Assembly: GCA_965238005.1 (NCBI GenBank)
Contig: OZ250165.1
Coordinates: 4,512,001-4,576,000, forward strand
DNA from: Longimicrobiales bacterium
Lineage (GTDB): Bacteria > Gemmatimonadota > Gemmatimonadetes > Longimicrobiales > Gaopeijiaceae
Direction: 5' to 3'
Length of the DNA: 64,000 nucleotides
Shown piece by piece: positions 4,465 through 23,635 of the stretch; position 1 is the stretch's first letter; each line of letters opens with the position of its first letter. The notes beneath the pieces were generated by a model. That model ran no database searches. It was not told the DNA's origin and saw only the letters and a program-made list of their open reading frames with translations. The position numbers were made by a program, and so were the translations under genes.

Positions 4465-5622
4465 TTATCGGAATCGTAGCGTTCCGGAGGCTTCCACCCC
4501 GATCAGCCCGTGGGTCGTCCCGTCCGGCGCCTTGAGGCGTCCCACGTTCACCTTTGCCCGCGGGAAGAAGTCGAGCCCCATGATCCGTAGGGGCAGGTCG
4601 AAGCCTCCGCCCAGGATCCAGCTGGCACCTGCGTCCACCTCTCCCGGTTGCGTGCCCAGGTCCTGAAGTCGGAAGTCCACGATTGGTCGCAAGTAGAGCG
4701 TCGATCTGATGGGAATCGCACCTCTCAGGCTCGCGAAGAGGAGGTTCTGCGTATTGGTCGCGACGAGGGAGTCGCCCACGATGTCCCCGGTGGAGTTGAG
4801 TATCTGCGGGCTCAGATCTCCCTCGGCGCGCCAGACGTCGGCGGCCGAGACGCTCCACGTGGTGCTTCCCGCACGAAATGCGTAGGTCGCGTCGACGCGT
4901 AGACGCTTGCCCGACTGGAAGAGGTTCCGGCCACCGAACTCGTCCGATTGAAAGGACTGGAGCGTGAACCCGGCGGTGAACTTCCCGGTCTCACCCACGT
5001 TCCGGTCGAGGCCGACTCTTATGCGCAGCTCGTTTCCCGGCGAATAGGCCAGGCTGGTATCGGAGCGCGGCTCGAATTCGTCCGCCGCTCGATAGCTCAC
5101 GCCCAGGCCCAAGCCCCACGTGCCGAGACTGTGCGCCGTGGCCACTCCGGTCGTGACATAGGTTCCCGTGCCCCAGTTCGACTCCCGGAAGCCCAGGATG
5201 TCCGAGGAAAGCACGGACGCCACCACGGCCTCCTCGGAGTCGTGGGTGACGTTGCCGGTAGGCAGGTTCACGCCAAGCGTGAGGATAGCCCAGGGCGAGG
5301 CCAGGTAGCTGAAGTGTAGCCTCGTGTCTACCACACCGTTGAGGACGGAGACCCGGCCGTCCCGCTTAACGCGGCCCTCCGCCCAGGCGGAGAAGAGCTC
5401 CGCCGAGAACTTGTCGCCCGCGGGGAGCCGGTAGGCGATGGGGATCATGAGCAGCTGGGCCGCATCGACTCCCAGATCGTCATCGAAATCGTAGCCTTGG
5501 TAGACGGCCGAGACACCCAAGCTCTGTACGTTGGTCTGGGCTGCAGCGTGGGTGTGGGCTCCGAAGCTGCCCACGGCTCCGAAGACCAGGATCGCGAACA
5601 GGGAGAAGTGTCTAGTGCTCAT
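4465..5622 (-). CDS. Hypothetical exported protein, probable outer-membrane beta-barrel
   Basis: Sec signal ending AAA-Q, amphipathic beta-strand patterning and an aromatic C-terminus (LRFR). Overlaps the upstream TPR gene by 4 nt. Confidence 0.65.
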   Translation of the reverse strand: MSTRHFSLFAILVFGAVGSFGAHTHAAAQTNVQSLGVSAVYQGYDFDDDLGVDAAQLLMIPIAYRLPAGDKFSAELFSAWAEGRVKRDGRVSVLNGVVDTRLHFSYLASPWAILTLGVNLPTGNVTHDSEEAVVASVLSSDILGFRESNWGTGTYVTTGVATAHSLGTWGLGLGVSYRAADEFEPRSDTSLAYSPGNELRIRVGLDRNVGETGKFTAGFTLQSFQSDEFGGRNLFQSGKRLRVDATYAFRAGSTTWSVSAADVWRAEGDLSPQILNSTGDIVGDSLVATNTQNLLFASLRGAIPIRSTLYLRPIVDFRLQDLGTQPGEVDAGASWILGGGFDLPLRIMGLDFFPRAKVNVGRLKAPDGTTHGLIGVEASGTLRFR

Positions 5623-6998
5623 TGCTCACCTCCCGGCCGCCGTATACTGATGGTCACCCGGGCCCTGGTCGTCGCCGTGCCCTCCTGCTGCGTGGCCTCC
5701 TGGGAGGAGTCACGCTCCGAGGCCTGCTTGTTATCCTGCCCCGCACTCGTCGTGGTACCCTGGTCGATGACCGTGGCCGTCGCGCTCGGGTTCACGTCCT
5801 GCGACGTCTCCTGCAGCAGGTTGTCGGTGGGAGCGATGTCGCCGGCGTCGGCCACACCGGTCACCCCCGACGTCTCACCGGCCGAGGCATCCTGGATGTC
5901 GGCGGTAGTGGTCGCCGCCGCGTCGTCGAGGCTCTGGGCCTCGGTGTTGGCCGTCTGCGCCGCGTCGAAGGTGGGATCGATGGATGCGGCCTGCTGGAAG
6001 AAGTCGGAAGCCGCCTGGAAATCGCCCCGGTCCATGGCCATGAGGCCCTCGCCGTAGGACAGGAACGCCAGGATGCTCTCGGCCCGGTTCTCGTTGATGG
6101 CCTCGCGCTCGGCGGGCGTCAACACCGCTCCGAGCACGTCGAGAATCTGGAATACGAGACCCTTCTCCATGTCGAAGATGGCCTCGAGCTCGTCCTGATC
6201 CGATACCGATCCGGCCGCCTGGGCCCGCACGGTGTTCATCACCTCGGCGTCGAACTGGATATTCTCCTGACCCAGGGTCGTGAGCACACCCTGGACCACG
6301 TGCTCCGACCTCAGGAGCCTACCCGCCCGGGCTCCCGTAACCGGATCGGCGTAGCCGGCCTCCGACAGCGCCATCTCGTCGAGGAGCGACTGGATCTGTG
6401 TCCGCTCCAGGACCGTCAGAGCGTTGGAGATGGCGAGATCGGTGATCATCATGTCCGCAAGAGCCACCTGAAGTGGCAGCAGGCCCTCGTCGTCCGAGAT
6501 GAGCCGGAAGGGGAACACCGCCACGGTGCGCGGCTCCGGAGGCTCGGTGGCCAGCTCGGCTTCTTGGGCCAGGGCGGCCTGGGCGGCGGACTGCAGCTCG
6601 TTCCGAACGATGAGCAGGAGGCGATCCTCCAGATCGTCCTTGAGGGGACCCCAGTTGCCCACATCGAGGTACGTAGTGTAAGCCTCTCTGGCTCCGGCCC
6701 AGTCCTCCAGCGACTCGTTGGACAGGCCGAGATAGAGATAGGCCGCCCCGGATTCGGCGCCCACCTCGACGGCGTTGGCCAGCGTCGTGCGCGCCTGCTC
6801 GAAGCGACCGTCCTTGTAGAGGGCTATGCCCAGACGGGTCTGGGCGGTAAGGTCACCAGGATTCTGAGAGAGCTGCTCCTGGAGACTGGGGATTTGGGCG
6901 GGATCGGCGTCGAGGCCCTGTCGCGCACAGCCGTCCAGCAACAAAGGGAGGACGAGTAGGAGCGAGAGGTGCCGGGTACTGTTCCAAGCCAAGGACAT
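5619..6998 (-). CDS. TPR + CsgG/HfaB (TolB-N-like) domain lipoprotein with an acidic/Thr-rich tail
   Basis: Lipobox-like LLLDGC; TPR-like helices (LGIALYKDGRFEQA, AYLYLGLS); CsgG-like segment TVAVFPF...VLERTQIQSLLDEMAL...ARAGRLL. Start taken as the ATG at 6998. Confidence 0.8.
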   Translation of the reverse strand: MSLAWNSTRHLSLLLVLPLLLDGCARQGLDADPAQIPSLQEQLSQNPGDLTAQTRLGIALYKDGRFEQARTTLANAVEVGAESGAAYLYLGLSNESLEDWAGAREAYTTYLDVGNWGPLKDDLEDRLLLIVRNELQSAAQAALAQEAELATEPPEPRTVAVFPFRLISDDEGLLPLQVALADMMITDLAISNALTVLERTQIQSLLDEMALSEAGYADPVTGARAGRLLRSEHVVQGVLTTLGQENIQFDAEVMNTVRAQAAGSVSDQDELEAIFDMEKGLVFQILDVLGAVLTPAEREAINENRAESILAFLSYGEGLMAMDRGDFQAASDFFQQAASIDPTFDAAQTANTEAQSLDDAAATTTADIQDASAGETSGVTGVADAGDIAPTDNLLQETSQDVNPSATATVIDQGTTTSAGQDNKQASERDSSQEATQQEGTATTRARVTISIRRPGGEQ

Positions 6999-7206
6999 CG
7001 GAAGCTTCCAGCAGGGGAAACGAATGCTCCATACAGGACGGGATTCCGCGGGCCATATAGAAGACTCGCACTCCCGTCGGAGTGGTCCTAAATTCACGGT
7101 GAGGGCTCCCGGCGGGCAAACGAAATCTTGCTCCTTTGGCCCGCCGTTTGCGCCCGCCGGCGCTGTGGCTCGGAGGGGTGAGCCCTCGCCTCGAGGAGGA
7201 TTGGTC

Positions 7207-7908
7207 TTGCGCATCGACGCCCCCCTTTCAGTTGCCGCGGTGGTGCTGGCTCTCGGCGTTGCGGTGCAACCTGTTCACGCCCAGAACCCTGACGTGCCCA
7301 CGGTGGCCGTACTGGACTTCACCGGTCTCATGCTCGGCTCGGCGGGCAACTCCGCCCCCCTGGGCAAAGCCGTCTCCAGCATGCTCATCACGGAGCTCAT
7401 CGGTAATCCCGGTCTTCAGGTCATCGAGCGATATCAGCTCCAGGACCTGCTCATGGAGCAGCGACTGGCTCTGTCCGGCAGGGTGGACGAGGGCACGGCC
7501 GTCGAGATCGGCAAGATGGTGGGTGCCCAGTACATGATCTACGGCCAGGTCACGAGCATCGCCGAGCAGCTACGGATGGACATGAGAGTCGTCGACGTGG
7601 AGACGTCGGAGGTGGTCGAAGCCCAGAAGATGAACGACAAGACGAGCGAGCTTCTGTCCGTGGTTGTGCGCATGGCGGACTCCTTCGTGGAGAAGCTGGA
7701 CCTGGATCCCCCGTCGTCCAGGGCGAAGATGGAGCCGATCCCGGTGCGGGCCACCGTAGAGTTTTCCCGTGCCGTCGATTTCGAGGACAAGGGTGAGATC
7801 GAGCAGGCCCTGGAGCATTACAGGGCGGCACTCGAGATCCACCCAGCCCACCGCGCTGCTCGACAGGCGGTCGATCGACTGGCGGCGAGCGGCGAGGACG
7901 ACCGATGA
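7207..7908 (+). CDS. Exported CsgG/HfaB-family protein with a C-terminal TPR
   Basis: GAGGAGGA RBS before the TTG at 7207; signal peptide VHA-Q; TVAVLDF...VIERYQLQDLLMEQRL...AVEIGKMVGAQYMIYG; TPR ALEHYRAALEIHP. Confidence 0.85.
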   Translation: MRIDAPLSVAAVVLALGVAVQPVHAQNPDVPTVAVLDFTGLMLGSAGNSAPLGKAVSSMLITELIGNPGLQVIERYQLQDLLMEQRLALSGRVDEGTAVEIGKMVGAQYMIYGQVTSIAEQLRMDMRVVDVETSEVVEAQKMNDKTSELLSVVVRMADSFVEKLDLDPPSSRAKMEPIPVRATVEFSRAVDFEDKGEIEQALEHYRAALEIHPAHRAARQAVDRLAASGEDDR

Positions 7909-9695
7909 CGAAAGCACTCCGAGGGGCGGTCGCTTGGACGCCCGCCCTGACGCTCGCCTGCATGGCTCTGATTCCGGATGGGCTGGGCGCCCAACAGGAT
8001 GCCGAGATCGCGTTCGACACGGATCTGCCACGGGTCCTGGTCTTCATCCAGGAGGAAGACGGGCAGATCGCCGCCCGTGAGATGACCAACTTCCTGCTCG
8101 AGGGGGGCTTCCCGGTGGTGGATCCGGCCTTGGCGTACACGGCCGCCCAGAGGGAGCTGGTGCAGGCGGCGCTGGGTGGGGACGAGGGTGCCGCTACGAG
8201 CCTGGGTCGTGACTTCGGGGCGCAGGTGCTGATTCTGGGGCGCGCGGACTGGGGCGCCCGGCCCGACAGGGTGGATCAGACCGCCATCACCGCCACGGGA
8301 GAGGTGGCTGTGCGCGCGCTGCGGCTGGATCTGGGCAGAGTCATCGCCACGGCGGAGGGTGACGGCGGGCGGGTCCTGGAGGCCACCGAGCAGCGCGGAA
8401 AGGCGCGGGTCCTGCGAAAAGCCACTCAGGAAGTGCTCGAGAACACCTCCTTCCTCGGCCAGCTCATGAACAATTGGGTCGACGAGCCTTGGGAGAACGC
8501 TCTCTACTGGGTGCCGGACCCCGGCTCCGTCCCCGCCGAGATGGCTTCTGCGGCCCGGGGGGCCGGTCCCGGACTCGCGATACTTCGTGCCGACGTCTCA
8601 CCGTCCACCCAGGCGGGGGCCACCCGTGGACTCGGCGTGGTGAAGAAAGGGGACCGGTCCTCGGATCTCTTCAACCCGATCCGCATCGAGGGCGTTGTCA
8701 TCGGTGAGACCAGAGGTGTGGAGGTCGAGGGCAAGCCCGCCAACCTCATCGACCTCGAGGAAGGCGAGGCAGAGCGCCTGGGCGTCGAGGGGCAGACGGC
8801 CCAACGGTTCTGGGCGGAGACCAACCTGCCCATGAGCCAGGATTCGGTCAGGGTTGTGGCGGAGGGGCCCGGTGGCTCCACCACCGAGGCCGTGGCCGCC
8901 CCACGCATCGACGAGCGCTGGGCCGTGGTGATCGGCGTGGGCCAGTACGGGAGCGCCGATATCCCGGACCTCGAGTTCGCTGGCGCGGACGCACGGGCCG
9001 TGTACGAGTTTCTTACGAGCTCCGCTGCGGGACCCTTCGAGGAGGATCACGTTCGCTTCCTCACCGACGAGGAGGCCACCGGCGAGGCCATGCGGGATGC
9101 CCTTTTCGTCTTCCTGCAGCAGGCCGACTGGGACGACCTCGTCTTCATCTACTATGCTGGCCACGGCGCGCCGGACCCCAACCGTCCGGACAACCTCTAT
9201 CTGCTGCCTACCGACAGTGATCTGGACGCTTTGGCGTCCACAGCGTTCCCGATGTGGGACGTCAAGACGGCCCTACGGCGACAGATCGCGTCCGAGCGCG
9301 TGATCGTGGTTGCCGACGCTTGTCACTCTGCCGGGACGGCGGACGGCGACGTGGTCGGGGGAGCGGAGGGCAACGCCATCGCCGGCGGCTTCGCTCAGCT
9401 TTTCTCGCCGTCCAGGCGGCTTATGATGACGGCCGCCGATACGAACGAGTTCTCCCTCGAGGACGCACGGTGGGGAGGCCACGGAGTGTTCACGCACTTC
9501 CTTCTGGACGGGCTCAGGGGGAACGGTGACGCCAACGCGGACGGCGTCGTAACGTTCAGCGAGATCTTCGACTACGTGAGCAAGAACGTGATCTCGGCCA
9601 CCGAGGGCCGTCAGAATCCGCAGCGGTCCGGGTTCGGGGACATACCCCTCGCGGTGGTGGAGACGGCCGGCACCGGGGACGGTGGAGGTCGGTAG
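7905..9695 (+). CDS. Exported caspase-family (peptidase C14) protein with an N-terminal accessory domain
   Basis: Signal peptide; C-terminal C14 domain with WAVVIG, YYAGHG (catalytic His), ADACHS (catalytic Cys), GHGVFT and QNPQ. Confidence 0.9.
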   Translation: MTKALRGAVAWTPALTLACMALIPDGLGAQQDAEIAFDTDLPRVLVFIQEEDGQIAAREMTNFLLEGGFPVVDPALAYTAAQRELVQAALGGDEGAATSLGRDFGAQVLILGRADWGARPDRVDQTAITATGEVAVRALRLDLGRVIATAEGDGGRVLEATEQRGKARVLRKATQEVLENTSFLGQLMNNWVDEPWENALYWVPDPGSVPAEMASAARGAGPGLAILRADVSPSTQAGATRGLGVVKKGDRSSDLFNPIRIEGVVIGETRGVEVEGKPANLIDLEEGEAERLGVEGQTAQRFWAETNLPMSQDSVRVVAEGPGGSTTEAVAAPRIDERWAVVIGVGQYGSADIPDLEFAGADARAVYEFLTSSAAGPFEEDHVRFLTDEEATGEAMRDALFVFLQQADWDDLVFIYYAGHGAPDPNRPDNLYLLPTDSDLDALASTAFPMWDVKTALRRQIASERVIVVADACHSAGTADGDVVGGAEGNAIAGGFAQLFSPSRRLMMTAADTNEFSLEDARWGGHGVFTHFLLDGLRGNGDANADGVVTFSEIFDYVSKNVISATEGRQNPQRSGFGDIPLAVVETAGTGDGGGR

Positions 9696-9721
9696 GGATC
9701 CAATCTAGCAGCTTCCAGAAT

Positions 9722-9753
9722 CCCGCCCGGTCTGCCCCGGGCGGGCTCCTTTT
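9722..9753 (+). terminator. Intrinsic terminator-like hairpin between convergent genes
   Basis: 9-bp stem CCCGCCCGG/CCGGGCGGG, 6-nt loop, followed by CTCCTTTT. Confidence 0.65.
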
Positions 9754-9765
9754 CGTTGGGGGCGA

Positions 9766-11580
9766 CTAGAACTCTCGCCAGTCGCCCTCCAGGATCTTGT
9801 GGTACACCTCGGACGCCAGCAGCAGGTCCACCACGGCCTGGTCAAGCATGCCATCCTGGGCCTCCATATTCAGGATGTCGAGGGCCCTCGTGGCGGGAAG
9901 GGCGCGCTTGTACGGACGGTCGGAGGCCGTGAGGGCGTCGAAGATGTCGGAGACCGTCATGATCCGGGTCTGGATCGCGATCTCAGACGCGCCGATACCG
10001 CGGGGATAGCCGGTCCCGTTGAGCTTCTCGTGGTGCCCATGGGCGATGTCGGCCACCCTCGCGAGATCGCCGGTCCACGGAATCTGCGTGAGGAAGTTGT
10101 AGGTGTGAGTCACATGGGACTCGATCTGCTTCCGCTCGTCCGGATCCAGTGATCCCTTTGGGATCGAAAGGAAGTGGAGCTCTTCCGGCGTGACGTAGGG
10201 TACCTGCCGGTCCTCGAAGTCCAGGAATGTCGCAGCGGCGATGTCGTTCAGAATTTCCGCGCTGGCCTCGGGAAGAACCCTCGGCTCGTTGGACTCGCGG
10301 ATGGCCTCATGGAATCGGTCCAACTGTTCGAGGGAGCTCTCGTACGCCTCCTCGAGGCCTCGGAGAAAGACGTCGAACCCGTCCTTGCCGTCCTGCAGGA
10401 GGTGCTCAGCCTTCTTCTGATGGAAGTCCGACTCGAGCGTGCGACGGATCAGATCGAAGCGAGCCTCGATCCGTTCGAGGAGCACTGGCGGCAGCTTCTT
10501 GGGCTTCACGAGAACGTTCTCCCGAACGCCCACCTTTCCGAAGTCGTGCAGAAGGCCCGCGTAGCGCAGCTCCTTCATCTGCTCGCGCGTGAAGCTGGTG
10601 TCCTTGAATGGACCGTCACCAGCCCGGTCGGCCACCTCGGCGACGTCGCAAGTCAGGGTCGACACGCGCACCGAGTGTCCCGACGTGGTCGGGTCCCGCT
10701 GGTCGATGGCGATGACGGCGGCCTTGATGAAGCCCTCGAAGAGGTCCTCGATGTCCCGATAGAGCTGTCCGTTCTCGATGGAGACGGCCGCCTGCCCGGC
10801 AAGGGACTGGACCAGCTCGACCTCCCTGGTCTCGTAGGGAAGCACGTACTCGTCCGCGGTGGCCTCGTCACGGATCACACCCTCTGGATCCGACTTCCGG
10901 TTGATGAGCTGGAGCACGCCGACCACGGCATCCCGATGGTCCTTCATGGGGACCACCAGCATGGACTTGGCCCGGTAGCCCACCTCCTCTTCGAACGCAC
11001 GGTTGAACGAGTAGGGCGCCGACTGGGGAATCTCGTACGCGTCGTCGATGATGAGTGGCTCCCCGTGCAGGGCCGTAAATCCCGCTACGCTGGTCTCATC
11101 GAAGGGAAGCGAGAAGTCCGGGGTCGGTAGATCGGGGAGAGAGGCATTCTGAGCCCGCAGGAAGTGGAGTGTCTTCTCTCCGTCGTCCCCCTCTTCGACC
11201 AGATACAGACTCCCGGCATCGCTGTCGGTCAGCCGTCGGGCCTGGGTGAGGATCATGCCCAGGAGTGAGTCGGGATTGCGCTCGCTCATGAGTGCCATTC
11301 CCACCCTGTTCAGCCCTCGCAGGTCTCCGTGGACCTGGCTCAGCTGAGCGTCGGCTGCCGCTCTCGCCCCGGACCCGTCGGCCAGGACGGTCACGTGACT
11401 GGGCACCGACCCCAAGTCGCCGGTCTCGCAGAGTCCGTCGGAGAGGACCAGGACCGCTGCCCCGTCATGGGCCGAGACCTCGGTCAGGCTGGAGATCTCC
11501 ACGACCTCCACGCCGTCGCCTAGAGCGGCCAGAGCCTGCGACGCGTTCCCGGTTTGCGCGAAGATCAAGAGCTTCGTCAT
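9766..11580 (-). CDS. GAF + HD-GYP domain phosphodiesterase
   Basis: GAF motifs (DAGSLYL, SMLVVPM, GVLQLINRK); HD-GYP motifs GHSVRV, LLHDFGK, HHEKLNGTGYP and DIFDALT..RPYK. Confidence 0.92.
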   Translation of the reverse strand: MTKLLIFAQTGNASQALAALGDGVEVVEISSLTEVSAHDGAAVLVLSDGLCETGDLGSVPSHVTVLADGSGARAAADAQLSQVHGDLRGLNRVGMALMSERNPDSLLGMILTQARRLTDSDAGSLYLVEEGDDGEKTLHFLRAQNASLPDLPTPDFSLPFDETSVAGFTALHGEPLIIDDAYEIPQSAPYSFNRAFEEEVGYRAKSMLVVPMKDHRDAVVGVLQLINRKSDPEGVIRDEATADEYVLPYETREVELVQSLAGQAAVSIENGQLYRDIEDLFEGFIKAAVIAIDQRDPTTSGHSVRVSTLTCDVAEVADRAGDGPFKDTSFTREQMKELRYAGLLHDFGKVGVRENVLVKPKKLPPVLLERIEARFDLIRRTLESDFHQKKAEHLLQDGKDGFDVFLRGLEEAYESSLEQLDRFHEAIRESNEPRVLPEASAEILNDIAAATFLDFEDRQVPYVTPEELHFLSIPKGSLDPDERKQIESHVTHTYNFLTQIPWTGDLARVADIAHGHHEKLNGTGYPRGIGASEIAIQTRIMTVSDIFDALTASDRPYKRALPATRALDILNMEAQDGMLDQAVVDLLLASEVYHKILEGDWREF

Positions 11581-12491
11581 CGCATCAGCCAGTCTGCCTT
11601 GTCGAAGGCCGCGCTCGCGCCCTCCAGGTCACCGAGCGCGTCAAGGATCTCGCCCTTGAGCAAGAACACGTCTGCGCTCAACTCCTCTTCGTCCAGGAAA
11701 GCCAGGGTAGCCGAAGCGTCATAGAAGAGCCCGACTTCCCGGTAGACCGCCGCGGCCATGAGGGCGCCGTCTCCGGTAGGATCCAGGCCGGCCGCGGCCA
11801 AGGACTCGAGCGCTCCTGCCACCTCGCCGTGCTCCTCACCGCCCAGGACCAAGAATCGCTGCTCGCGCGTCGGCCGGCCGGAGCCGGAGGGCGCCACGGT
11901 CCAGGCGTACGTCTGGCCCCTGAGCAGGTCCGGAGCATCGGTGGGCAGCGCCCAGGTCGTGTCGGAGGTCTCATAGCGGGTGATCCCGCCCTCCAGATTC
12001 CGGACCTGGATCATGTAACCGGTGGCGCCTTCCACCGAGTGCCAGAAGAACGTGGGGCGCGCGTCCATGACCGGGAGGCCGTTCCTGGGCGCGATCAGAA
12101 CCGGCTCGCCGGGGATGGGACGGATCATCCCCTGTCGATTGGGATTGCCGCGGGCGTCGGTGGTGGCGGCGCTGGCGAGGACTCGCATGGTCCTCGAGAA
12201 GGCGCCCGCCTCGGAGTCGCCGCTGGCTGCGGGAATGGTCAGCGTCTCCGTCACACGTTGTGTGCGGCCGGTGGCATGGACGATTACCGCCTCTCCTCCA
12301 CCTGTGATGATCTGATCCCCGCTGGCCAGCCGGGTGCCGACCGCGGCCGCAATGGGGGCACCATCCCCCAGGATGACCTCGACAGCCCCCTGAACACTCA
12401 CTACCACGGCTGCGGGAGCCTCTTGGATCGGGGGTCCCCCGTTTGCTCCGAGGAGCAGGAACGAGCTCGTTGCGATGAGAAGCTTCTTCAT
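11577..12491 (-). CDS. Exported protein with a FecR-like N-terminus, a DUF928-like Ig region and a C-terminal TPR-like helix pair
   Basis: Signal peptide MKKLLIA; VQGAVEV...LASGDQIITG (FecR-like); RPTFFW...LPTDAPDLLRGQTYAW (DUF928-like). GGAG RBS before the ATG at 12491. Confidence 0.65.
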   Translation of the reverse strand: MKKLLIATSSFLLLGANGGPPIQEAPAAVVVSVQGAVEVILGDGAPIAAAVGTRLASGDQIITGGGEAVIVHATGRTQRVTETLTIPAASGDSEAGAFSRTMRVLASAATTDARGNPNRQGMIRPIPGEPVLIAPRNGLPVMDARPTFFWHSVEGATGYMIQVRNLEGGITRYETSDTTWALPTDAPDLLRGQTYAWTVAPSGSGRPTREQRFLVLGGEEHGEVAGALESLAAAGLDPTGDGALMAAAVYREVGLFYDASATLAFLDEEELSADVFLLKGEILDALGDLEGASAAFDKADWLMR

Positions 12492-12511
12492 AACTGACTC
12501 CAATGGGCTCC

Positions 12512-14732: not shown

Positions 14733-14798
14733 GGCATCACGGTCGAGCCGTGTCGGGGCCCCAGCCCAGCGGATCAGGCACGGTCGAGAGGCTCGGCG

Positions 14799-16682
14799 CT
14801 AGTTGTGGATCTCGTACATCAGCGACGCACTCCCCCACGAGTCGAGACGCACGGCTCCATCGGAACCCTCCGCCGGGCCGGCGGCCCTGCGAACGGCGTC
14901 AGCAATGAGATCGGCGAGCTCGAGCTTGCCCGCGGTGAAATCGTCACCGACGGCGATGTCCAACGGTTCCGGTGTCAGGAAGGCGCGGACCATTCCGCGG
15001 CCAGCCGGCGGCATGGCCTGGATCTCGAACTCCATGCTCTCGGTCGGGAACTCGATTCGCTGTCCCGCGGTCACCGCGTTCTCCCGGTCGTACGGGTTCG
15101 GGAAGAGTACGGTGACCGTCCCGTCGGTACCGAGGTCGACGAGGGTCAGGTATCCGCTGCGCTCGGCCTCGGCCAGGAAGCGCACGTTCTCGCCGATGCC
15201 GAAGCTGGACACTCCGCCGGCGAGCCAGACCTCGAGGCTGAACGACTGTGCCGGGTTCTCCATGTCGCCGAGCCTCTTCGCGGAGGCCTCACGCATGAGG
15301 GCATCGGCCAGGTCGGTGGCGCCCTCGGCGCCGGCCGGGAAGACGTGCCGTGCCGCCCCGTCCATTCCAACCACCCGGATGTCCATTCCCCGGCGCCGCA
15401 GCAGCAGATCGGAGTAGGACTCCTCATCATGGATAAGCACGATCGCCTCGGAGCCCTCGATGGCGCTCGCCAGAGCGTCGGCGGTGCCGGTGTCCGCCCC
15501 GGCGACGTTGACTCGCAGAGGGCTGGACGGGAAGCGATAGCCCTCCAGGGTCGCCCGATCACCCTCGCTCACGGATCCCGTCAGGACTCTGGCTTGGGAG
15601 CGGTCCGAGCTCACCGACTCCACCACCATGCGGGCGCCGTCGGCCGTGCTGAACGTCGATCCCAAGGTGATCCCAAGCGCCTGGCCGCCCTGTAGCTCAG
15701 CCGTGGAGCCACTGATGGAAAGCACGGGCAGAGACGCCGAAGACGTGCCCCGGGACCCGCCCTCCACGAAGAAGAGTGGAAGCGACTTGGACGCCACATC
15801 CTCGGAGAGGTAGGGGTCCTGCTCGAAGCGATTTCTCTTGAGGTGGTCTGACACCCGGCGGTATGCGTCCTCGTACGACATGTCCGCCGGGGCCCTCCAG
15901 AGCTCCCGGATGAGGAAGGTCGTGAACGCCCCGCCGTGGAACGGGTCCGCGCCGTTCTCCCCCGGGAAGAAGGCGTCCACGGCCGGCTGGTCGGGCTGGG
16001 CGGCGGCGAGCTCCAGGACGTTCGCGCCCTGGGAGTCGAAGCCCGTCCGGTCTCTCTCGTTCGCGAGTGCGCGCCGGGAAATGGTCGCCGGCCTGTCGAT
16101 CTCGGATACGTCCCGTCCGAGCTGGCGTGTTCGGGAGAACGGAGTGACGTCGCGCGTTCCCGATCCGGAGCTGCAGTTGTCCAGGAACACCACGACGTTG
16201 TCCGTCGGGAGGGCCCGGAGCCAGGCTCCGAACTCGTCGTCGCTGATGTCGAACTCGGTCGAAGTGGGGCTGACGTCGGCGGGGGCCAGCGTCTCGTCCA
16301 GACCATCGTCCTCGTCGCCGCTTTCGTCCCACATCTGCGAGCCGTGTCCGGCATAGAAGACGGTGACATTGTCGCCGGGACGCGCCCGCTCGGGCAGCCA
16401 CTCCGTGAGGGCGACCTCGATGTTGGCGCGGGTGGCTTCCTGATTCAGGAGCATCCGGATGTTGTCCGGCGGGAAACCGTACCGGCTGAGGAGAACGTCC
16501 CGCATGCCCCGTGCATCGTGCTCCGCACCGGGGAGGTCGCCACCTGTTACGTCGTCATAGTGGATGTAGTCACTGATTCCGATGATCACCGCCCAGTGTG
16601 TGGGAGCGATGCGTTCGGCGGGCCCGAAGGCGAGCAACGGTACGGCTGCCATTGCCGCCACCACAGGGGCGAAACGTCTCAC
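14799..16682 (-). CDS. Exported metacaspase-like (peptidase C14) protein with a C-terminal DUF4384-like domain
   Basis: Signal peptide; WAVIIGISDY, YAGHGSQ, DEDDGLDETLAPAD, LDNCSSG and GAFT; C-terminal GYLTLVDLGTDGTVTVLFPN is DUF4384-like. Confidence 0.9.
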   Translation of the reverse strand: MRRFAPVVAAMAAVPLLAFGPAERIAPTHWAVIIGISDYIHYDDVTGGDLPGAEHDARGMRDVLLSRYGFPPDNIRMLLNQEATRANIEVALTEWLPERARPGDNVTVFYAGHGSQMWDESGDEDDGLDETLAPADVSPTSTEFDISDDEFGAWLRALPTDNVVVFLDNCSSGSGTRDVTPFSRTRQLGRDVSEIDRPATISRRALANERDRTGFDSQGANVLELAAAQPDQPAVDAFFPGENGADPFHGGAFTTFLIRELWRAPADMSYEDAYRRVSDHLKRNRFEQDPYLSEDVASKSLPLFFVEGGSRGTSSASLPVLSISGSTAELQGGQALGITLGSTFSTADGARMVVESVSSDRSQARVLTGSVSEGDRATLEGYRFPSSPLRVNVAGADTGTADALASAIEGSEAIVLIHDEESYSDLLLRRRGMDIRVVGMDGAARHVFPAGAEGATDLADALMREASAKRLGDMENPAQSFSLEVWLAGGVSSFGIGENVRFLAEAERSGYLTLVDLGTDGTVTVLFPNPYDRENAVTAGQRIEFPTESMEFEIQAMPPAGRGMVRAFLTPEPLDIAVGDDFTAGKLELADLIADAVRRAAGPAEGSDGAVRLDSWGSASLMYEIHN

Positions 16683-16693
16683 GGCGTGGGCTC

Positions 16694-17608
16694 CTAAAGC
16701 AGGATGTCGGCCAGTTCGGCCGCGGCGTCGACCTGAAAGCTATATCCGAGGGAGAGGGCCTCGTCCCGGTGTGACGACACCAGCTCGGAGAGCTTCTCGT
16801 CGTGACGCTCGGGATCGTGGTGAAAGAAGAGGAGCCTCTTCGCGCCCACCTCGTCAGCGAGATGGAGCGCCTGGCGGAAGGTAGAATGCCCCCAGCCCAG
16901 CTTGGACTGGTACTCCTCCTCGGTGAACATGGCGTCGTGGATCAGAACGTCCACATCGCCCACGAAGTCGATGAACTGGCGATGCCAGTCCTCGCCCACG
17001 TCGTAATCCTCTCCCGCGATCTCGTTGTCCGGGATGTAGGCGAGGGACGCACCTCCGTACTCGATGCGATACCCGACCGTGAAGGACGGATGTCTCATTC
17101 GCATAGCCGATACGCTGAACCCGTCGTCCTCCCAAACGCCCTCGTTCAGATGGGAGAACTCCTTGTGCGCAGCGAGAGCGTCGAAGGGGATCGGGAAGTA
17201 GATCGGCCCCATCTGCCCGGCGAAGAGCGTCTGAATGTCCACGTCGAACTGCTTGGGACCGATGATTTGGAGCGACGCGGTGGGGTTGTACAAAGGCACG
17301 AAGAATGGGAACCCCTGGATGTGGTCCCAATGGAAGTGTGTGAGGAAGATGACGGCGTCGGTGGCGCCATCCTCGCTCATCATGTGCGAGCCGAGGGGAC
17401 GGATCCCCGTGCCGGCGTCGAAGATGAAGCGCCGGCCGTCGTCGAGGCGCACCTCCATGCAGGGTGTATTCCCCCCGTATTTGGCGGTCCCTGGGCCCGG
17501 ACTGGGGATAGACCCTCGGGTTCCCCAGCAAACTGCCTCGATCACGGGGTGTGCCTCCTCGGTCTCCATCGTCGTGGCCGGCGAGGCGGCGTCCATCGCT
17601 TGCTCCAC
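16694..17608 (-). CDS. MBL-fold metallo-hydrolase (RNase Z/cyclic phosphodiesterase-like)
   Basis: Motifs WGTRGSIP, YGGNTPC, FDAGTG, THFHWDHIQG (HxHxDH), GWGHS and FHHDP. Confidence 0.9.
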   Translation of the reverse strand: MEQAMDAASPATTMETEEAHPVIEAVCWGTRGSIPSPGPGTAKYGGNTPCMEVRLDDGRRFIFDAGTGIRPLGSHMMSEDGATDAVIFLTHFHWDHIQGFPFFVPLYNPTASLQIIGPKQFDVDIQTLFAGQMGPIYFPIPFDALAAHKEFSHLNEGVWEDDGFSVSAMRMRHPSFTVGYRIEYGGASLAYIPDNEIAGEDYDVGEDWHRQFIDFVGDVDVLIHDAMFTEEEYQSKLGWGHSTFRQALHLADEVGAKRLLFFHHDPERHDEKLSELVSSHRDEALSLGYSFQVDAAAELADILL

Positions 17609-17892
17609 CCGAACTCTCCCGGTGAGTCGTCAGCGCCTCGAGATACTCTTTGAATCTACTTGAGCGAGGCCGGTTTCGGCGAGGATTTTCGTTCTTGTGG
17701 CTACGCTAACCAGACGGATCGGGGTTGCGCGCATGGGCGCGGAACCCCTGTAGTCCGCCGGCCCGATGCGGTTGCCGATGACTTCTCAGTTGCCTCCCCG
17801 GGCTCGCGGGTCGAGCGTGGGATCTCCGATGCCCAGCACTCGGTGCCGGGGATATGAGCACTGCTGACACGTGCTCCGACCCAGCCGGCCCA

Positions 17893-20800
17893 CTAGAGGC
17901 AGGGCATGTTGCCCACGTTCACCGGAGCAAGCGCGAACGCGGAGCCCGGGTTTCTGAGGTCGATGGTGGCGATCAACGCGTCAACGTCCTCCTCACAGAG
18001 CATCGGGTTCAGCTGAATGGTGAAGCCGCTCCCCACCGCCGGCGTCGCGCTCGTGGTGCCTATGCCCGACAGCCCACTCACGCTCGTGAGCGATGCGTTC
18101 CCCGACACGAACACTGTCCACAGGGGCGATGTGATGCCGCCCAACGCGTCCAACGAGGTGAGCGCGTCATTGTTCGAGATGGTTATTCCACGGTTTACGG
18201 TCGTGAGGAGGGTGAAGTCCAACGTCGTCAAGAACGGGTTGTTTTCGATTCGGAGCAGTCCGTAGGTGGTGCTCACACCTACTCCTGCCCCGAGCAGGGC
18301 TAGCTTCGGGAACGAGACACTCGTGAGGCCGTCATTGTTTTCGATGACGAGCGTCTCGCCCACGGTGACCAGTGCGCCGAGCGGCCCAAGGGTCGTCAGC
18401 ATGGGGTTGTCCGAGATGTGCAAGTCTTCCTGGATCGTGGCCAGCATCGGCGCCGTGAACGAGGTGAGGTTGGGCTGACCTCTCAGGAAAAGATCGTCGC
18501 CGACGAACGTGAGTGCGGGGAACGAGAGGCTCTCCAGACCGTCGTTGCCGTCCGCCGCACCAGACTCCGCCATGTCGATGTCGTCTTCAACCCTCTCCAG
18601 GCTCGAGAAGTCGAGAACCAGGGGTGTCCCGCCGGTCCCGTTTTCCCACACCTCCATGTCGTCGCCGATGGTGACGAGGCTCGGCAGGGACAACAACCGG
18701 AGCGCCGGATTATCCACGACGTCGAGGTCGTCGGCGATCGTGTGCAGCACGGCGAACGAGGCGGTCTCCAGATTAGTGTTCCTCTCCAAGTCGATGTTGT
18801 TGCCGATCGACTCGAGGCCCGGGAAAGCAGTCTGGATCAAGTTGAGATTGTCCAACACCTTGACGTCGTCGCCTACGATGGCGAGAACGGGCAGGTTGAT
18901 CGTCGCCAGTCCGGGGGTGTTGGCGATGGTGAGATCGATCCCGATCTCTTCGATTCCATTCAGGCCCGCGACATCCGTCAGCGACAGGTTATTTGTGATG
19001 GTGACGTTGCCCGTGACCTCCCGGATCGTCTCGAGGCCGTCGAGGTTGGTCACCGACGTTCCCTCGACCCTCAAGCTGCCCTCGATCTTGATATAGCGGG
19101 CGGCCGCGGCTTCGGCGAGGGTCATTACGCCGACGCCGGGGGAGTCGCTGATGACCAGATCGCCGACGTGTGCCTTGAAGACGTCAGTGAGGATGACGAA
19201 GTCGGCCCGCCCCGTCGGGTTGTTCGGATCGAGCGTGACGCTGGCCGACGAGGGCGAGAACCCCTTGTAGTCGGCTCTGGGGAGTGGGTGGACCGTGTAG
19301 CTGCCGGCGAACAGGCCGGGGAACCGGTAGTGGCCGTCGACATCGCTCTCCGTCTGCATGAGGAGTGTGGAGCCCTGTCTCAGTTCCACTTCGATGATGC
19401 GGATGGGCTCGGGCGCCGCCGCAGGGCTGCCCTCGGCCTCGCCCGGTACCGGTGATGCGGCTCCCAGCGTGAACGTGCCCTCGATGAACGAAGTGACCGT
19501 GGCGAAGAAGTCCGAGCCCGTCCCGTTCACGAACACACGGAACAGGGCGTCGCCCGGTGCCGCCGAGGGCGCCACTCCGGTGAGCGTGCCCGTGAGCGTG
19601 CTGCCGCTCGCGTTGAGCTTGGGCGACGAGCCCGCCCACGTCACTTGGTCGATGAGCGGGATCACGTCTCCGTTGATGTCCAGCGGCTGGAGCATCACCT
19701 CCACGCTCGAGCCCACCTCGACCTCCGGTGTCTCCGGGCTGATCGTGACTCTCCGAACCTCCGGCGTCGCCTCCACCTCCACGTTCAGCACATCGGTCGT
19801 GACGGTCAGCGCCGTGGGCGGTGCCCTCGTGATCGCGAATCCGGCAGGTGCCGCATACGCCGCCGTGTAGTCGCCCGCCAGGATCCCGTCCAGGAAGAGC
19901 GAGCCCGACGCGTCCGTCACACCCGACGACGCCTCGGTGCCGCCCTGCGTGAGGACCACGCCCAGACCCGCCACCGGTGCGCCCCACGGCGTCACGGCCG
20001 TCACCGCCACGCTCCCGAAGATGGGCGTGTAGGGGAACGTCGCCTCGCTCGTGAGCGTCGCCACCCGGATACCTCCGGCCGCCACACCCCGGGGCACCAC
20101 GACCCGGATGCTCGTGGCCGTGATCTCCAGCACCTCGACCTCCACCTCACCCTCAGACGTCGGGAAGAACACCCGCGTGTTCGACGCGATGATCGGATCG
20201 AAGCCGCTGCCCAGGATCAGTGCTTCCTGGCCGGGGATCGGTACCTCGGGATCGAGTCCCGTGATGTCCACTGGGGGCGGAGGAGAGGGAGGCGTGAAGC
20301 CGCCGCTCGCGCTGCCCCACGCCGGATCCGCGCCACTGATGCCCAACGCCATCGGAGGACTGCCTCCGTCCACGGGCGCCACCATCAGCCCGTCGCCTCC
20401 CGCGTACAGCGCCCAGCCGCCCTGGATCGCAGGCCGGGAGCCCGTCACAACGCCCGGCACCGGACCCGAGCCCTGGATGAACACCTGGCCTTCTCCGTCC
20501 AGATAGGCCAGCCGTCCCTCCGCCGTCACCGTCGGGAAGCTCGCAGCGCCCGGGATCAACAGGTTCCGGCTGCCGCTCACCACGTCCACCAGCTCGATGG
20601 AGCCGCCACTCACGTACAGACTCGTGGCACCCGCCCACGCGGGCAGCGAGCCCGCCGGCCCCTCCGACTCCCCCGAGCCGTCGGCGTTGGCCAGCAGCAG
20701 CACCCCGCCCCCGTCCGCCGCGATCTTCGTCCCGTCCGGCGACGGAGCAGGCCACGAGCCCGACATGATCGCAACGCCCGAGATGAAGACCATCCTTCGC

Positions 20801-21674
20801 CGTACATCACCCCGTTGCCCGTGGGCACAGGGCCGTGCGCTTCGCCCGTCCCCGCGATCACCCGCGCCGTGCCGCCCACCACAGGGGCCGTCATCACCAT
20901 GCCGCCCTGGATGAACGTCATCTCCCCGCCGAACACGTAGACCCACACGCTGGCGCTCAGACCCGTGGGCGTCGTCACAGTCACGAGCGTCCGGCCGCCG
21001 CCGCCGCCCGTCACCGTGCCGGCGTCGTTGACCGATGCCACTCCGGTCGAGGCCACCGTCCAGCCCAGCGGTACGTCGGCCAGCACGCTGCCGTCGCTCC
21101 CCAACACCTCCGCCTCGAACGTCCGACTCCCGCCCGGAGGCAGCACCGCGCCCGTCGACAGGATCTCGACCCCCACCGCATCGGCGCCCGGACCCTCGTA
21201 CGTGAGTGGTACGGAGAACGGTGGCGGAGGCGTGGCGGTCTGCGTGTCGGTCGTCGCCACCGTGAGGGGTGGCGACTCGAAGAGCACGGTCTCGCCCTGC
21301 ATGGCGATGATCGTGACGCACACCGGCTCACCGGGCGTGATCCCCGGAAGCTCCACCGACAGGTCGTACACGTCCTCGCCGGGCGTCACCTCGAAGATCA
21401 CGTCCAGCAGCACTTCGGTGCAGCTCACATCCTTGACGATCAGCCGGAAGCGGTCCACCCGGTCGAACGCCTGGCTCAGGGCGTCCTCCTGGGCGGCGCT
21501 CAGAGCGGGGGCGCCCGGTGCCACCGCATAGCTGAGCTGAGGCACCAGGTGGAGCACGTGCGGCCGTTCGTCCGTGGCCGGACCAGCCACGGGGCCGTCC
21601 ACGCAAGAACCGAGCAGCAACGCGGAGACTAGAGCTACCAATCCCGGGAGGGAGACCGGCCGACGTGCCTTCAC
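17893..21674 (-). CDS. Large surface lipoprotein (Ig-like, TolB-like propeller, IPT/TIG, carboxypeptidase-regulatory-like domains and C-terminal receptor-L-domain-like leucine repeats), frameshifted near 20795
   Basis: Lipobox LLLGSC after the GTG at 21674. ORF 20610-21749 reads as protein up to GVMYGEG and ORF 17893-21321 reads as protein from MVFISG. The C-terminus has many L..L..VG..L.I..N..L repeats. Confidence 0.75.
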
Positions 21675-21853
21675 GGGGGGACCTTCCAATCCTTCAGCGA
21701 CAGAGAGGGACTTTAATCGCCCCTCCTTCCAATCTTCGTGCACTTCCACCCTCTTGCAAGCGAAAATCCCACGACCGGATGAGGCCCTTTTCCGGTCCTT
21801 CCGACCGGGAGTATGTTTTAGTCCCTCACTTCCACCGAGCAGGAGTGCCTTGA

Positions 21854-23032
21854 GTGGCCGCTGAACCCCGTGATCTGTCCTTGGACGAAGTGATGGAGAT
21901 GCTCCGACACGTCGACCTCTTCCAGGGACTGCCGGACGACGAGCTCAGTGGCGTGAGCGAGGTCGTCAATGGCGTGACCGCACAGGATGGTGAGGTACTC
22001 TTCGAGGAGGGAGAGCCCGGCGACTGCTTCTATGTTGTGTCAAAGGGCGCCGTGGAGATATCGAAGGGCGTTTCGGGGGGCGGAACAGATAAGCTCGCGG
22101 TCCGCAGGGCCGGTGAAGCCTTCGGGGAGATGGCCCTCTTGAACGACGCCCCCCGCTCAGCTACGGCCAAGGCGATGGAGGAAACCGAGCTGCTGACCTT
22201 GTCGCGTGAGGACTTCGAGCAGCTCGTCGGCGGCGACGGCCTCGCGATGCGCATGTTGCAGGTGCTCTCGAAGGCTCTCCGTGCCCTCGACGTTCGGTTT
22301 GCGAGCCTCGAGCGGGGCGTCCCGAGTCCGGTAGTGACGGGGGGCGGAGCCGACGACGCCAACCGGGCTCTACAGCGCGCGATCATGCCAAGGAGCGCCC
22401 CGACGGCCGACGGGTTCGACATCGCCGCCGGCACGATGCTGGAAGAGTCGGGCGCCGGCCGGACCGCCTGGGAGACCGTCCGCTTTGCCGACGGGAGAGC
22501 GGGCTTGGTGACCATGACGGTCCACGGAGACGGGCTTCCACCCGCCCACCAGTTGGCCCTCGCCCGGGCCTTCCTCAACGAGTTCGCACGGACGGGTCAA
22601 TCGACGGAGTCGCTTTTCGCAGCCGTCAACGACGGTCTGTCTCACAACGAGACGCCCGGCGTCGATCAGACGATCGCGGCCGGGATGTTGGTGCCAGGCG
22701 ACGGTTCCGTGCTCTGGTCCGGAGCGGGTGATGTCCGAGGCGCGGTGATCCGCAGGGACGGAACTCTGGACGAGTTCCCGTCCCACGGCCCCCCCCTGGG
22801 CATGCTGGACGGCTTCCAGTACGGAACCCAGGAGTACGAGATCGGCACGGGCGACATGGTGATCGTCCTCTCGACGGGCTCGACCGGTCTGTTCAGGGGG
22901 GCGGCCGACCTGGTCTCCACCCTGCAGCAGAAGCCCGCCGGAGAGGTCGTGGCGACCGTGCACAAGGCCATCCGGAAGCTCCAGGGCGAGGACGTCAAGG
23001 AGACTACGGTCCTATTCATGAGGAAGCACTAG
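21854..23032 (+). CDS. Cyclic-nucleotide-binding domain fused to a degenerate SpoIIE/PP2C-like domain
   Basis: LFEEGEPGDCFYVV and FGEMALLNDAPRSATAKA (intact phosphate-binding cassette); LQRAIMP, GPPLG and GDMVIVLS (SpoIIE-like) but lacking the catalytic Asp residues. Confidence 0.85.
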   Translation: MAAEPRDLSLDEVMEMLRHVDLFQGLPDDELSGVSEVVNGVTAQDGEVLFEEGEPGDCFYVVSKGAVEISKGVSGGGTDKLAVRRAGEAFGEMALLNDAPRSATAKAMEETELLTLSREDFEQLVGGDGLAMRMLQVLSKALRALDVRFASLERGVPSPVVTGGGADDANRALQRAIMPRSAPTADGFDIAAGTMLEESGAGRTAWETVRFADGRAGLVTMTVHGDGLPPAHQLALARAFLNEFARTGQSTESLFAAVNDGLSHNETPGVDQTIAAGMLVPGDGSVLWSGAGDVRGAVIRRDGTLDEFPSHGPPLGMLDGFQYGTQEYEIGTGDMVIVLSTGSTGLFRGAADLVSTLQQKPAGEVVATVHKAIRKLQGEDVKETTVLFMRKH

Positions 23033-23052: not shown

Positions 23053-23352
23053 ATGGAGGTCACCGAGAAAGACGTCCGTAACGCGCTGAAGAAGGTCAAG
23101 GACCCCGAGCTGGATCTCGACCTCGTCGTCCTGGGCCTCGTCTACGACATCGAGGTCGATGGTGAGGACGTGCATGTGGTCATGTCGCTGACCTCGCCGA
23201 TGTGTCCTGTTGCCGACCAGCTCGTCTTGGACGCGCAGGCTGCCGTGGAGGGGGTGGACGGTGTGGAGAGCTGCGAGGTCGACCTCACCTTCGACCCGCC
23301 ATGGACGCCCGAGCGCATCGCGCCACTGATTCGGGCATCGCTGGGACTCTAG
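23053..23352 (+). CDS. Metal-sulfur cluster assembly factor (DUF59/SufT-like)
   Basis: Motifs VKDPEL...VVLGLVY, SLTSPMCP and TFDPPWT; GGAGG RBS. Confidence 0.92.
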   Translation: MEVTEKDVRNALKKVKDPELDLDLVVLGLVYDIEVDGEDVHVVMSLTSPMCPVADQLVLDAQAAVEGVDGVESCEVDLTFDPPWTPERIAPLIRASLGL

Positions 23353-23516
23353 TCTTCCGTTTCCGAAGTTCGCGAGCCACCAAGAGGGTCGGGGGGGCGT
23401 GGGATCAAGGCGGGACGACGCGGCGTAGCGTAAGCTACGGTAAGGAGTTCCAACGCCGAGCCCACGGATGCACCGTGCCCTCGACTGGCCGAGACACTTT
23501 GGTAACGGGACTCTAG
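23349..23516. mobile_element. MITE-like repeat copy (160 bp between CTAG flanks)
   Basis: CTAG at 23349-23352 and 23513-23516; imperfect 17-bp terminal inverted repeats; closely similar to the reverse complement of 25433-25600. Confidence 0.85.
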
Positions 23517-23635
23517 GAACGATTTCGCCGCTCCGAGCACTGGATACGGGGGGGGGTCGTCGTATAGACTATTTCGTTCGAACGATCGTTCGAACTGTAA
23601 TCGAGAGAGCGGATCGTCATGAAGTGGCGGGGGAC

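Follow-up and report, generated by a model that had tools for sequence, protein, structure and literature searches.

Positions 4465–23032 of the window, the 64,000-nucleotide stretch of Longimicrobiales DNA analysed here (from a one-contig genome of 4.84 Mb), hold eleven genes built around a core of three: an exported C14 protease with a C-terminal DUF4384 domain (protease 2), a CHASE2 adenylate cyclase, and an exported protein resembling MtxA of magnetotactic bacteria. This core is real and strongly conserved, and the single eleven-gene signalling circuit proposed in an original prediction from the DNA alone is overstated. We favour, with a probability of roughly 50%, a form of the mtx-type envelope cassette that is confined to this order, in which protease 2 would cut or grip the linker RQGMIRP of the MtxA-like protein and thereby switch the CHASE2 cyclase; the coupling between protease and cyclase is the step that we infer. 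How CHASE2 receptors are switched has long been an open question, and MtxA itself has a known structure and an unsolved function.

The core triad and its conservation

All eleven genes, with the domains previously assigned to them, were recognised in Pfam searches. They lie in four transcription units of alternating direction (4465–6998, minus strand; 7207–9695, plus; 9766–21749, minus; 21854–23032, plus) and make up three modules, with no single operon. The third unit contains the tight co-directional run that had been proposed, with genes for a metallo-β-lactamase-fold (MBL) hydrolase, protease 2, the cyclase, the MtxA-like protein and a GAF-HD-GYP protein, spaced by about 11, 66 and 18 nucleotides and then overlapping by 4. 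Protease 2 (14799–16682, minus) scores 82 bits with Pfam C14 and 72 bits with DUF4384. The cyclase gene (12512–14732, minus), frameshifted in this genome, scores 89.5 bits with CHASE2 and 87.2 bits with Guanylate_cyc, and the MtxA-like gene (11577–12494, minus) encodes 305 residues.

A GTDB scan with RQGMIRP as search pattern retrieved 73 loci around the MtxA-like gene, and neighbours were counted in those loci with enough flanking sequence. The cyclase is a neighbour in 67 of 68 loci, its CHASE2 domain in 62/64 and protease 2 in 53/55. The co-conservation on which the prediction had staked itself is thus found for the core, whose three genes are adjacent in nearly all of these loci. A single circuit of all eleven genes is not supported: the MBL, HD-GYP and cyclic-nucleotide-binding (CNB) genes persist without the core, and the outer-membrane barrel gene is found in many unrelated contexts. 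The MBL gene (50/52), the HD-GYP gene (59/61) and the CNB gene (37/49) are further neighbours of the MtxA-like gene. Where at least 9 kb was available on each side (32 loci), a second exported C14 protease (protease 1) and its CsgG/LpoB-like partner occur 14 times, the barrel with a CsgG-TPR lipoprotein 11 times, and a large lipoprotein 9 times.

The relatives found are labelled Gemmatimonadota/Longimicrobiales, and in a 301-genome sample of the phylum, with three candidates scored per genome, the full-length cyclase orthologue was seen only in this order. A search of all representatives with an MtxA-like profile brought up no distant context and was dominated by FnIII-repeat proteins. In G305, which has the full cassette elsewhere, a second MtxA-like copy (L053:9945-11267) lies away from it, with the linker preserved and about 130 residues added at the C-terminus.

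Such a locus could be a composite of unrelated modules held by descent at one site, with no functional link between protease and cyclase. All sub-modules except the triad do occur alone as well, and in some genomes unrelated genes (a sulfatase, a kinase-FHA-PP2C set) separate the modules. The triad, however, survives rearrangement: in family f2 (L059, L061) the gene order is reshuffled, yet protease 2, the cyclase and the MtxA-like protein are still encoded together. Protease 1 also co-occurs with the triad genome-wide, even from other contigs; when 150 further genomes from this order were examined, both genes were present in 14, out of 15 with a close orthologue of the MtxA-like gene (E < 1e-80) and 16 with a protease 1, full-length or contig-cut. 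An analogous set exists in another class of the phylum (L048:6416-15384, genome G054), where genes for a CsgG/LipL46-like protein, a CHASE2 cyclase, an MtxA-like protein and a 1241-residue exported TPR-CHAT protease stand in a row. We consider a purely composite locus very improbable.

The exported proteases, the Arg linker and the cyclase

Both C14 proteases have the basic-hydrophobic N-termini, judged by hydropathy and inspection, that agree with the signal peptides originally assigned to them. A signal-peptide-like N-terminus is present in 20/20 inspected protease 2 orthologues and in 10 of 12 protease 1 rows, the other two having been called from a later start, and both enzymes are probably exported. 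Each scores above the Pfam C14 cut-off and contains the His-Gly and Asp-x-Cys dyad, the integrity of which is confirmed among relatives: His, Cys, two S1 Asp residues and a post-Cys TR are kept in 55/55 orthologue matches of protease 2, and His, Cys, the S1 Asp and RG[IL]G in 26/26 matches of protease 1. Metacaspases and C14 proteases with acidic S1 residues prefer to cleave after Arg or Lys. By analogy, protease 2 is predicted to cut after Arg, and its TR and the RG[IL]G of protease 1 are candidate processing sites.

Protease 1 (7905–9695, plus; Pfam C14 66 bits) consists of a CsgG-like N-domain, a [TSV]RG[IL]G linker and the C14 domain. The N-domain aligns with CsgG-like proteins at an HHalign probability of 76.6% (E 2e-5), and a PDB sequence search with the N-terminal half returned no match. 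The exported CsgG/LpoB-like and TPR-containing partner (7207–7908, plus; Pfam CsgG 64 bits; start reassigned from 7024 to 7207) is found beside protease 1 in 14/14 loci and is fused with it in one open reading frame (ORF) in G330 (L067). The DUF4384 domain of protease 2 has been noted as a frequent protease fusion and as a C-terminal domain of Csx30 (10.1101/2022.08.17.504292). Three clustered C14 genes were also noticed in G011 (L096:8426-15624), a complete genome with no CHASE2 domain.

Characterised bacterial caspase-like systems (Craspase, SAVED-CHAT/PCaspase, Thoeris caspase) had been described in the prediction as cytoplasmic. The present proteases differ from these by their signal-peptide-like N-termini and by the lack of any CRISPR, SAVED or TIR sensor domain among the 18 window proteins scanned with Pfam. 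Exported and CHASE2-fused metacaspases (PMC3501461) and a group of secreted metacaspases beside a CHASE2 gene in GI 15 of Psychroflexus torquis (PMC3914696, Fig. 9) are already in print. These sets likewise place signal-peptide-bearing C14 proteases beside, or fused with, a CHASE2 sensor; in the accessible text they are descriptive and read as programmed cell death, and the GI 15 figure legend makes no mention of a cyclase, an MtxA-like partner or a cyclic nucleoside monophosphate (cNMP) module. Caspases fused to CHASE2 are also reported in EACC2 systems (PMC8195603).

The MtxA-like assignment is based on an AlphaFold2 (AF2) model (predicted local distance difference test, pLDDT, 84.7) compared by Foldseek and VIA. 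The model comprises a β-sandwich (residues 25–95), a helix (97–111), a low-confidence segment (118–123, pLDDT < 50), an FnIII domain and TPR-like helices; the RQGMIRP linker spans residues 120–126. The C-terminal half matches MtxA (PDB 4Z29) with a Foldseek E of 1.7e-5 and a TM(target) of 0.59. Profile comparison with 4Z29 is weak (E 0.18 and 0.083), and orthology to MtxA is not established because structural identity is 14% and the profile E-value 0.083. MtxA-like is nevertheless the best structural description, and it replaces the earlier label of FecR/DUF928-like: no Pfam FecR match was obtained at E 0.05, against 62 and 57 bits for the partners in L029 and L037, and the DUF928 (PF06051) score of 18.8 bits is under the cut-off of 26. 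CHASE2 together with DUF928 has been noted in Nostoc (PMC5587647).

In the mtx cluster of magnetotactic bacteria, mtxA is followed by a CHASE2 adenylate cyclase gene, and trypsin separates the two domains of MtxA (PMC4439547). In both clusters a CHASE2 cyclase gene adjoins one for an exported protein of about 305 residues, built of an N-domain, a protease-sensitive linker and Ig/FnIII-like and TPR-like domains, and the linkers are Arg-rich and aligned, MtxA having QRYTTVRRS opposite RQGMIRP. Unlike the present locus, the mtx cluster is described in the accessible text with no named protease, phosphodiesterase or reader, and the order is reversed, the cyclase coming first here.

RQGMIRP is unchanged in all 21 aligned system copies, and 119 of the 120 best word-search matches have it exactly. 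Among 26 profile matches it is exact in 22 and keeps both Arg residues in all 26, the profiles having contained the motif; these 26 are the single-stretch matches of 150 rows, 124 FnIII-repeat rows having been dropped. RQGMIRP is lost in 2/2 orphan MtxA-like copies, in G409 (L063:9532-10443) and G267 (L064:6513-7379), where the gene stands alone between pfkA and a gene matching window positions 23053–23352. No C14 protease, CHASE2 domain or class III cyclase was found in these two genomes, which are 94% and 97% complete. Because it is invariant in system copies and lost in orphans, we regard RQGMIRP as a candidate site of cleavage or docking.

The cyclase has the two metal-binding Asp residues, the ATP-specifying Lys and Ser/Thr/Asp, and the catalytic Asn and Arg in 66/66 matches and in the window copy; these are the residues to which the corresponding roles are assigned in class III cyclases. 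The Lys and Ser/Thr pair had been read as ATP-specific, and the motif indicates that the enzyme uses ATP.

In the mechanism that we favour, the MtxA-like protein and protease 2 would be exported to the periplasm, where the protease, predicted to be Arg-specific, would recognise, and probably cleave, the flexible linker. Cleavage would alter how the MtxA-like protein engages CHASE2 and so switch the cyclase, which, given its catalytic residues, would make cyclic AMP (cAMP). A general cNMP module would then handle the signal: the CNB protein would bind cAMP, the GAF domain of the HD-GYP protein would couple cAMP to cyclic-dinucleotide breakdown, and the MBL hydrolase would reset the signal. Protease 1 and its CsgG-like partner would provide a second, genome-linked input or an upstream activator, and the barrel and the two lipoproteins would make up a surface-display module of their own, lodged at this site.

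The linker data can also be accommodated by an adaptor that is not cleaved. The MtxA-like protein would then be a ligand-binding co-receptor whose RQGMIRP segment docks on CHASE2, and the proteases would be co-regulated outputs serving surface-protein maturation, turnover or defence. The orphan genomes lack cyclase and protease alike, so motif loss fits docking as well as cleavage, and the most constant neighbour of the MtxA-like gene is the cyclase (67/68). There is also a precedent in Sinorhizobium meliloti, where the CHASE2 cyclases CyaD1, CyaD2 and CyaK are switched by a protein signal through the outer-membrane barrel NsrA (PMC13001267, PMC5498481, PMC7529298); the accessible sections of these sources name no protease step and do not explain how NsrA relays the signal to them. 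That system resembles ours in its CHASE2 cyclases, its barrel and the FecR and TPR proteins of its regulon, and differs in its reader, the CRP-family protein Clr in place of a CNB-pseudo-PP2C protein, and in that our barrel is not obligatory (11/32 loci). Docking without cleavage, however, leaves aside that a protease with an intact dyad precedes the cyclase in 53/55 loci, that different protease families recur beside CHASE2 cyclases, and that the two invariant linker Arg residues suit the acidic S1 residues of C14 proteases. On balance an uncleaved adaptor lies on the unlikely side, while deserving serious attention.

The protease slot beside CHASE2 cyclases appears to be filled by different families, because exported M48 peptidases take this position at six other loci of the phylum (L027, L028, L038, L041, L043, L045) and the TPR-CHAT protease does so in L048. 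Candidate readers were noticed near the M48-type cyclases, namely a CNB-MscS channel (L043, L045; also L042) and a CNB-patatin protein (L041).

Control might also run inside-out, as in the LapD/LapG/LapA system, with the CHASE2 receptor holding or freeing the protease according to the cytoplasmic state and the protease releasing a retained exported protein, the MtxA-like protein or the large lipoprotein, from the cell surface. The N-domain of the MtxA-like protein resembles an adhesin anchoring domain (5IX9; VIA Z 10.4, root mean square deviation 2.1, 71 aligned residues; profile E 0.01), and in LapA, too, a retention module is followed by a helix and a flexible conserved motif, which a periplasmic protease linked to cyclic di-GMP cuts (10.1101/198937). 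The large lipoprotein, moreover, tracks the barrel near the cyclase, the barrel being present in 8/9 loci with the lipoprotein versus 3/23 without. However, the NCBIfam retention_LapA score is 27.2 bits, below the cut-off of 50, and large lipoprotein and barrel are both missing from 20/32 loci. LapA is described as a giant, type I-secreted protein with a TAAG dialanine site and inside-out signalling, unlike the 305-residue MtxA-like protein, whose N-terminus is signal-peptide-like and which carries an Arg motif but no TAAG dialanine site. The cyclase is also catalytically complete and predicted to be active; since every catalytic residue is kept (66/66), it is a writer and not a degenerate receptor. 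Inside-out control is accordingly improbable.

A more elaborate outside-in pathway extends the favoured reading: the product of a caspase-like cut in the Arg linker, behind the retention-module-like domain, would itself be the CHASE2 ligand, cAMP would pass to the GAF-HD-GYP protein, so that envelope proteolysis is turned into cyclic-dinucleotide breakdown, and to the CNB-pseudo-phosphatase, and protease 1 might activate protease 2 in a periplasmic caspase cascade. In this full form the scheme is rather doubtful.

Several observations count against protease-gated switching of the cyclase. The loci belong to relatives and share one chromosomal site, from pfkA to the gene at 23053, so their adjacency partly reflects descent. 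As the linker was the search pattern, the 73 loci are no test of its conservation, and the orphan copies are more diverged overall (30–31% identity), so their linker loss may be drift. With 21 class III cyclase domains in the genome of the window, the readers may work for another cyclase. An operon with a FecR-type CHASE2 cyclase lies opposite the MBL-HD pair in L029 and L030; no protease was detected among the Pfam-scanned neighbours of the L029 cyclase, and the layout of L030 is identical. Deletion of mtxA, finally, gave no visible phenotype (PMC4439547).

The gene set is partly in print already. What the locus adds specifically is a linker motif that is naturally lost in orphan copies, an N-domain resembling a retention module, a GAF of the cNMP type on an HD-GYP protein and a pseudo-phosphatase reader. 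No published description of a protease-gated CHASE2 cyclase was found in a literature search with partial full-text coverage, so a protease in mtx-type clusters may be in print. The lineage offers a compact, highly conserved cassette with a candidate site, natural deletion variants and intact orthologues, and caspase-gated cAMP synthesis is therefore testable with three genes.

The cyclic nucleotide module and the damaged local copy

The GAF-HD-GYP protein (9766–11580, minus; Pfam GAF and HD_5) keeps HD in 63/63 matches, HHExxxGxGYP in 61/61 and RPYK in 60/61. Its GAF domain has as best PDB matches the GAF of PDE5 (E 3e-16), the tandem-GAF adenylate cyclase 1YKD, PDE2A, 4MCW and PDE10A, and by this similarity it may bind a cNMP. 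HD-GYP domains are cyclic-dinucleotide phosphodiesterases that cut cyclic di-GMP or cGAMP. Since the GAF is of the cNMP type, a role as reader, in which the protein would break down cyclic dinucleotides in response to cAMP, is likelier than that of the cAMP eraser it had been taken for.

The cytoplasmic MBL hydrolase (16694–17608, minus; Pfam Lactamase_B_2) keeps its HxHWDH metal motif in 53/53 matches. Its best PDB matches are RNase Z, and it scores 38 bits with NF041851 against a cut-off of 400; it is a candidate cNMP phosphodiesterase. The CNB-SpoIIE protein (21854–23032, plus; Pfam cNMP_binding 82 bits, SpoIIE 54 bits) has the phosphate-binding cassette residues GE in 38/38 and RS in 37/38 matches, as expected of the cNMP-binding effector originally described. 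The fused PP2C/SpoIIE domain is degenerate. The canonical metal-binding motifs of PP2C phosphatases are GGD and TDG; here the aspartates of both are absent in 11/11 aligned rows, and neither GGD among the nine commonest motif-1 strings nor TDG among the nine commonest motif-8 strings was seen. A PDB sequence search with the SpoIIE part gave no match. The protein is probably a cNMP reader and pseudo-phosphatase.

This module also occurs without the triad. Among the 150 genomes of the order, the HD-GYP gene occurs in 15/15 core genomes and in 17 that lack the core; for the full CNB-SpoIIE gene the numbers are 12 and 7. At the same site, G011 (a one-contig genome with no CHASE2), G294 and G005 have the MBL-HD pair without the triad, beside CNB-SpoIIE or its SpoIIE part, and contain 8–15 other cyclase domains each. 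The FecR-type operon (L029:9935-16067, L030, L037:10249-16396) also encodes two exported proteins of about 700 and 355 residues with no curated-level Pfam family. A Campylobacterota cluster, proposed as a single pathway, combines a CHASE2 adenylate cyclase, a phosphodiesterase, and FecR-domain and TPR proteins (PMC9239204). It resembles the present locus in pairing the cyclase with a phosphodiesterase, an exported β-sandwich partner and TPR proteins; its partner, however, is of the FecR type, and the accessible text mentions no caspase or CNB reader.

The predicted CHASE2 cyclase has all its domains, but the gene is split in this genome by a frameshift near 13664 into two ORFs, one for CHASE2 (13662–14732) and one for the membrane helices and catalytic domain (12512–13612). 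It has one base more than the gene of its congener G001, which creates a stop ahead of the membrane helices; the three parts are in one frame in 63/65 related loci and not here. The frameshift is probably a real pseudogene lesion because contigs of runs X4 (13156–13724) and X5 (13432–13965; another study) span the site without a gap, at depths of 6.7 and 2, one of these runs sharing its study with the run that best carries this DNA. An X2 contig crosses the site with one gap at an unlisted position. An assembly error was considered and is most likely false: X4 and X5 share the allele, the inserted base, a T flanked by runs of G, leaves homopolymer length unchanged, and 16 flanking or unlinked genes show zero frameshifts or stops (one further gene was covered over only 13%). 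Repeats make up 6.9% of the genome. With its cyclase gene frameshifted, the cassette here is unable to signal through its own cyclase, and no RNA data carrying the locus were present among the listed runs. A second related cyclase fragment, apparently 5′-truncated, was noticed among several insertion sequences elsewhere in the same genome (L031, G000:C1:987492-988406).

Other genes of the locus are damaged as well. The large lipoprotein gene is split near 20793, with four bases fewer than in G001, G002 and run X2, and the HD-GYP gene has lost in frame about 40 N-terminal-domain residues that 7/7 aligned orthologues keep; in several relatives the entire N-terminal part of HD-GYP is absent. That the congeners are without the locus was entertained and is wrong, as G001 and G002 carry it with large deletions. 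The deletion in G001 fuses CHASE2 to the CsgG-TPR lipoprotein in an in-frame chimera of 839 residues (L092:14353-16872), and that in G002 runs from inside CHASE2 to pfkA. In L098 a deletion extends from HD-GYP into the lipoprotein, and in L099 the barrel and lipoprotein genes are split, the cyclase being intact in both. The locus is decaying in this clade, since lesions are also present in 4/4 nearest relatives. A further deletion adjoins the locus at 23352–23636, where four genes of G001 and G002 (L092:3831-6240) are absent.

The envelope module and other features of the window

The barrel and the CsgG-TPR lipoprotein make up a module of their own, which follows the occurrence of large surface lipoproteins. 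The barrel gene (4465–5622, minus) is predicted to encode 16 strands (AF2 pLDDT 85), in line with the outer-membrane barrel originally suggested, and has a loose tie to the core. In VIA the top rows are PelB, PgaA, CdiB and BcsC (Z 18.5–19.9), with the porin CymA nearly tied (18.3), so kinship with export barrels is a modelling lead only. ESM Atlas returned only unnamed Gemmatimonadota clusters, one of them 11% Phenol_MetA_deg. The barrel family is present in 40 of the 150 order genomes, and the closest orthologues (E < 1e-75) occur in 8, all core carriers.

The barrel gene overlaps that of the TPR-CsgG-like-TPR lipoprotein (5619–6998, minus; start reassigned from 7214 to 6998), and the two are a single ORF in L076. 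This lipoprotein has a lipobox-like N-terminus, a TPR match and a Pfam CsgG score of 31.3 bits (cut-off 20.8); in both CsgG proteins of the locus the match is above the cut-off, but partial and TPR-fused. The pair is found in many unrelated contexts, and in 9/16 barrel loci away from the cyclase a lipoprotein of at least 400 residues adjoins the barrel. In L075, L077, L079, L087, L088 and L036 the pair was often seen by apparent Ser/Thr kinase, PP2C and FHA genes (Pfam-checked for L036), and in L065, L080 and L089 beside apparent type VI secretion genes.

The large surface lipoprotein of the prediction is present at 17893–21749 (minus) in its frameshifted form, with Ig-like, SdrD-B/prealbumin-like and L-domain repeats recognised by Pfam, and behaves as variable cargo. 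Between the convergent protease 1 and HD-GYP genes there is a weak terminator-like hairpin (9722–9747, plus; 7 such sites versus 6.8 expected); the promoter and terminator scan of the locus was at chance level. Elsewhere in the window, a repeat gene at 37192–38790 with a HHVRHWADGGETNLENLVLLCRFHH motif, which we take to be of an HNH-endonuclease-like family, is probably mobile.

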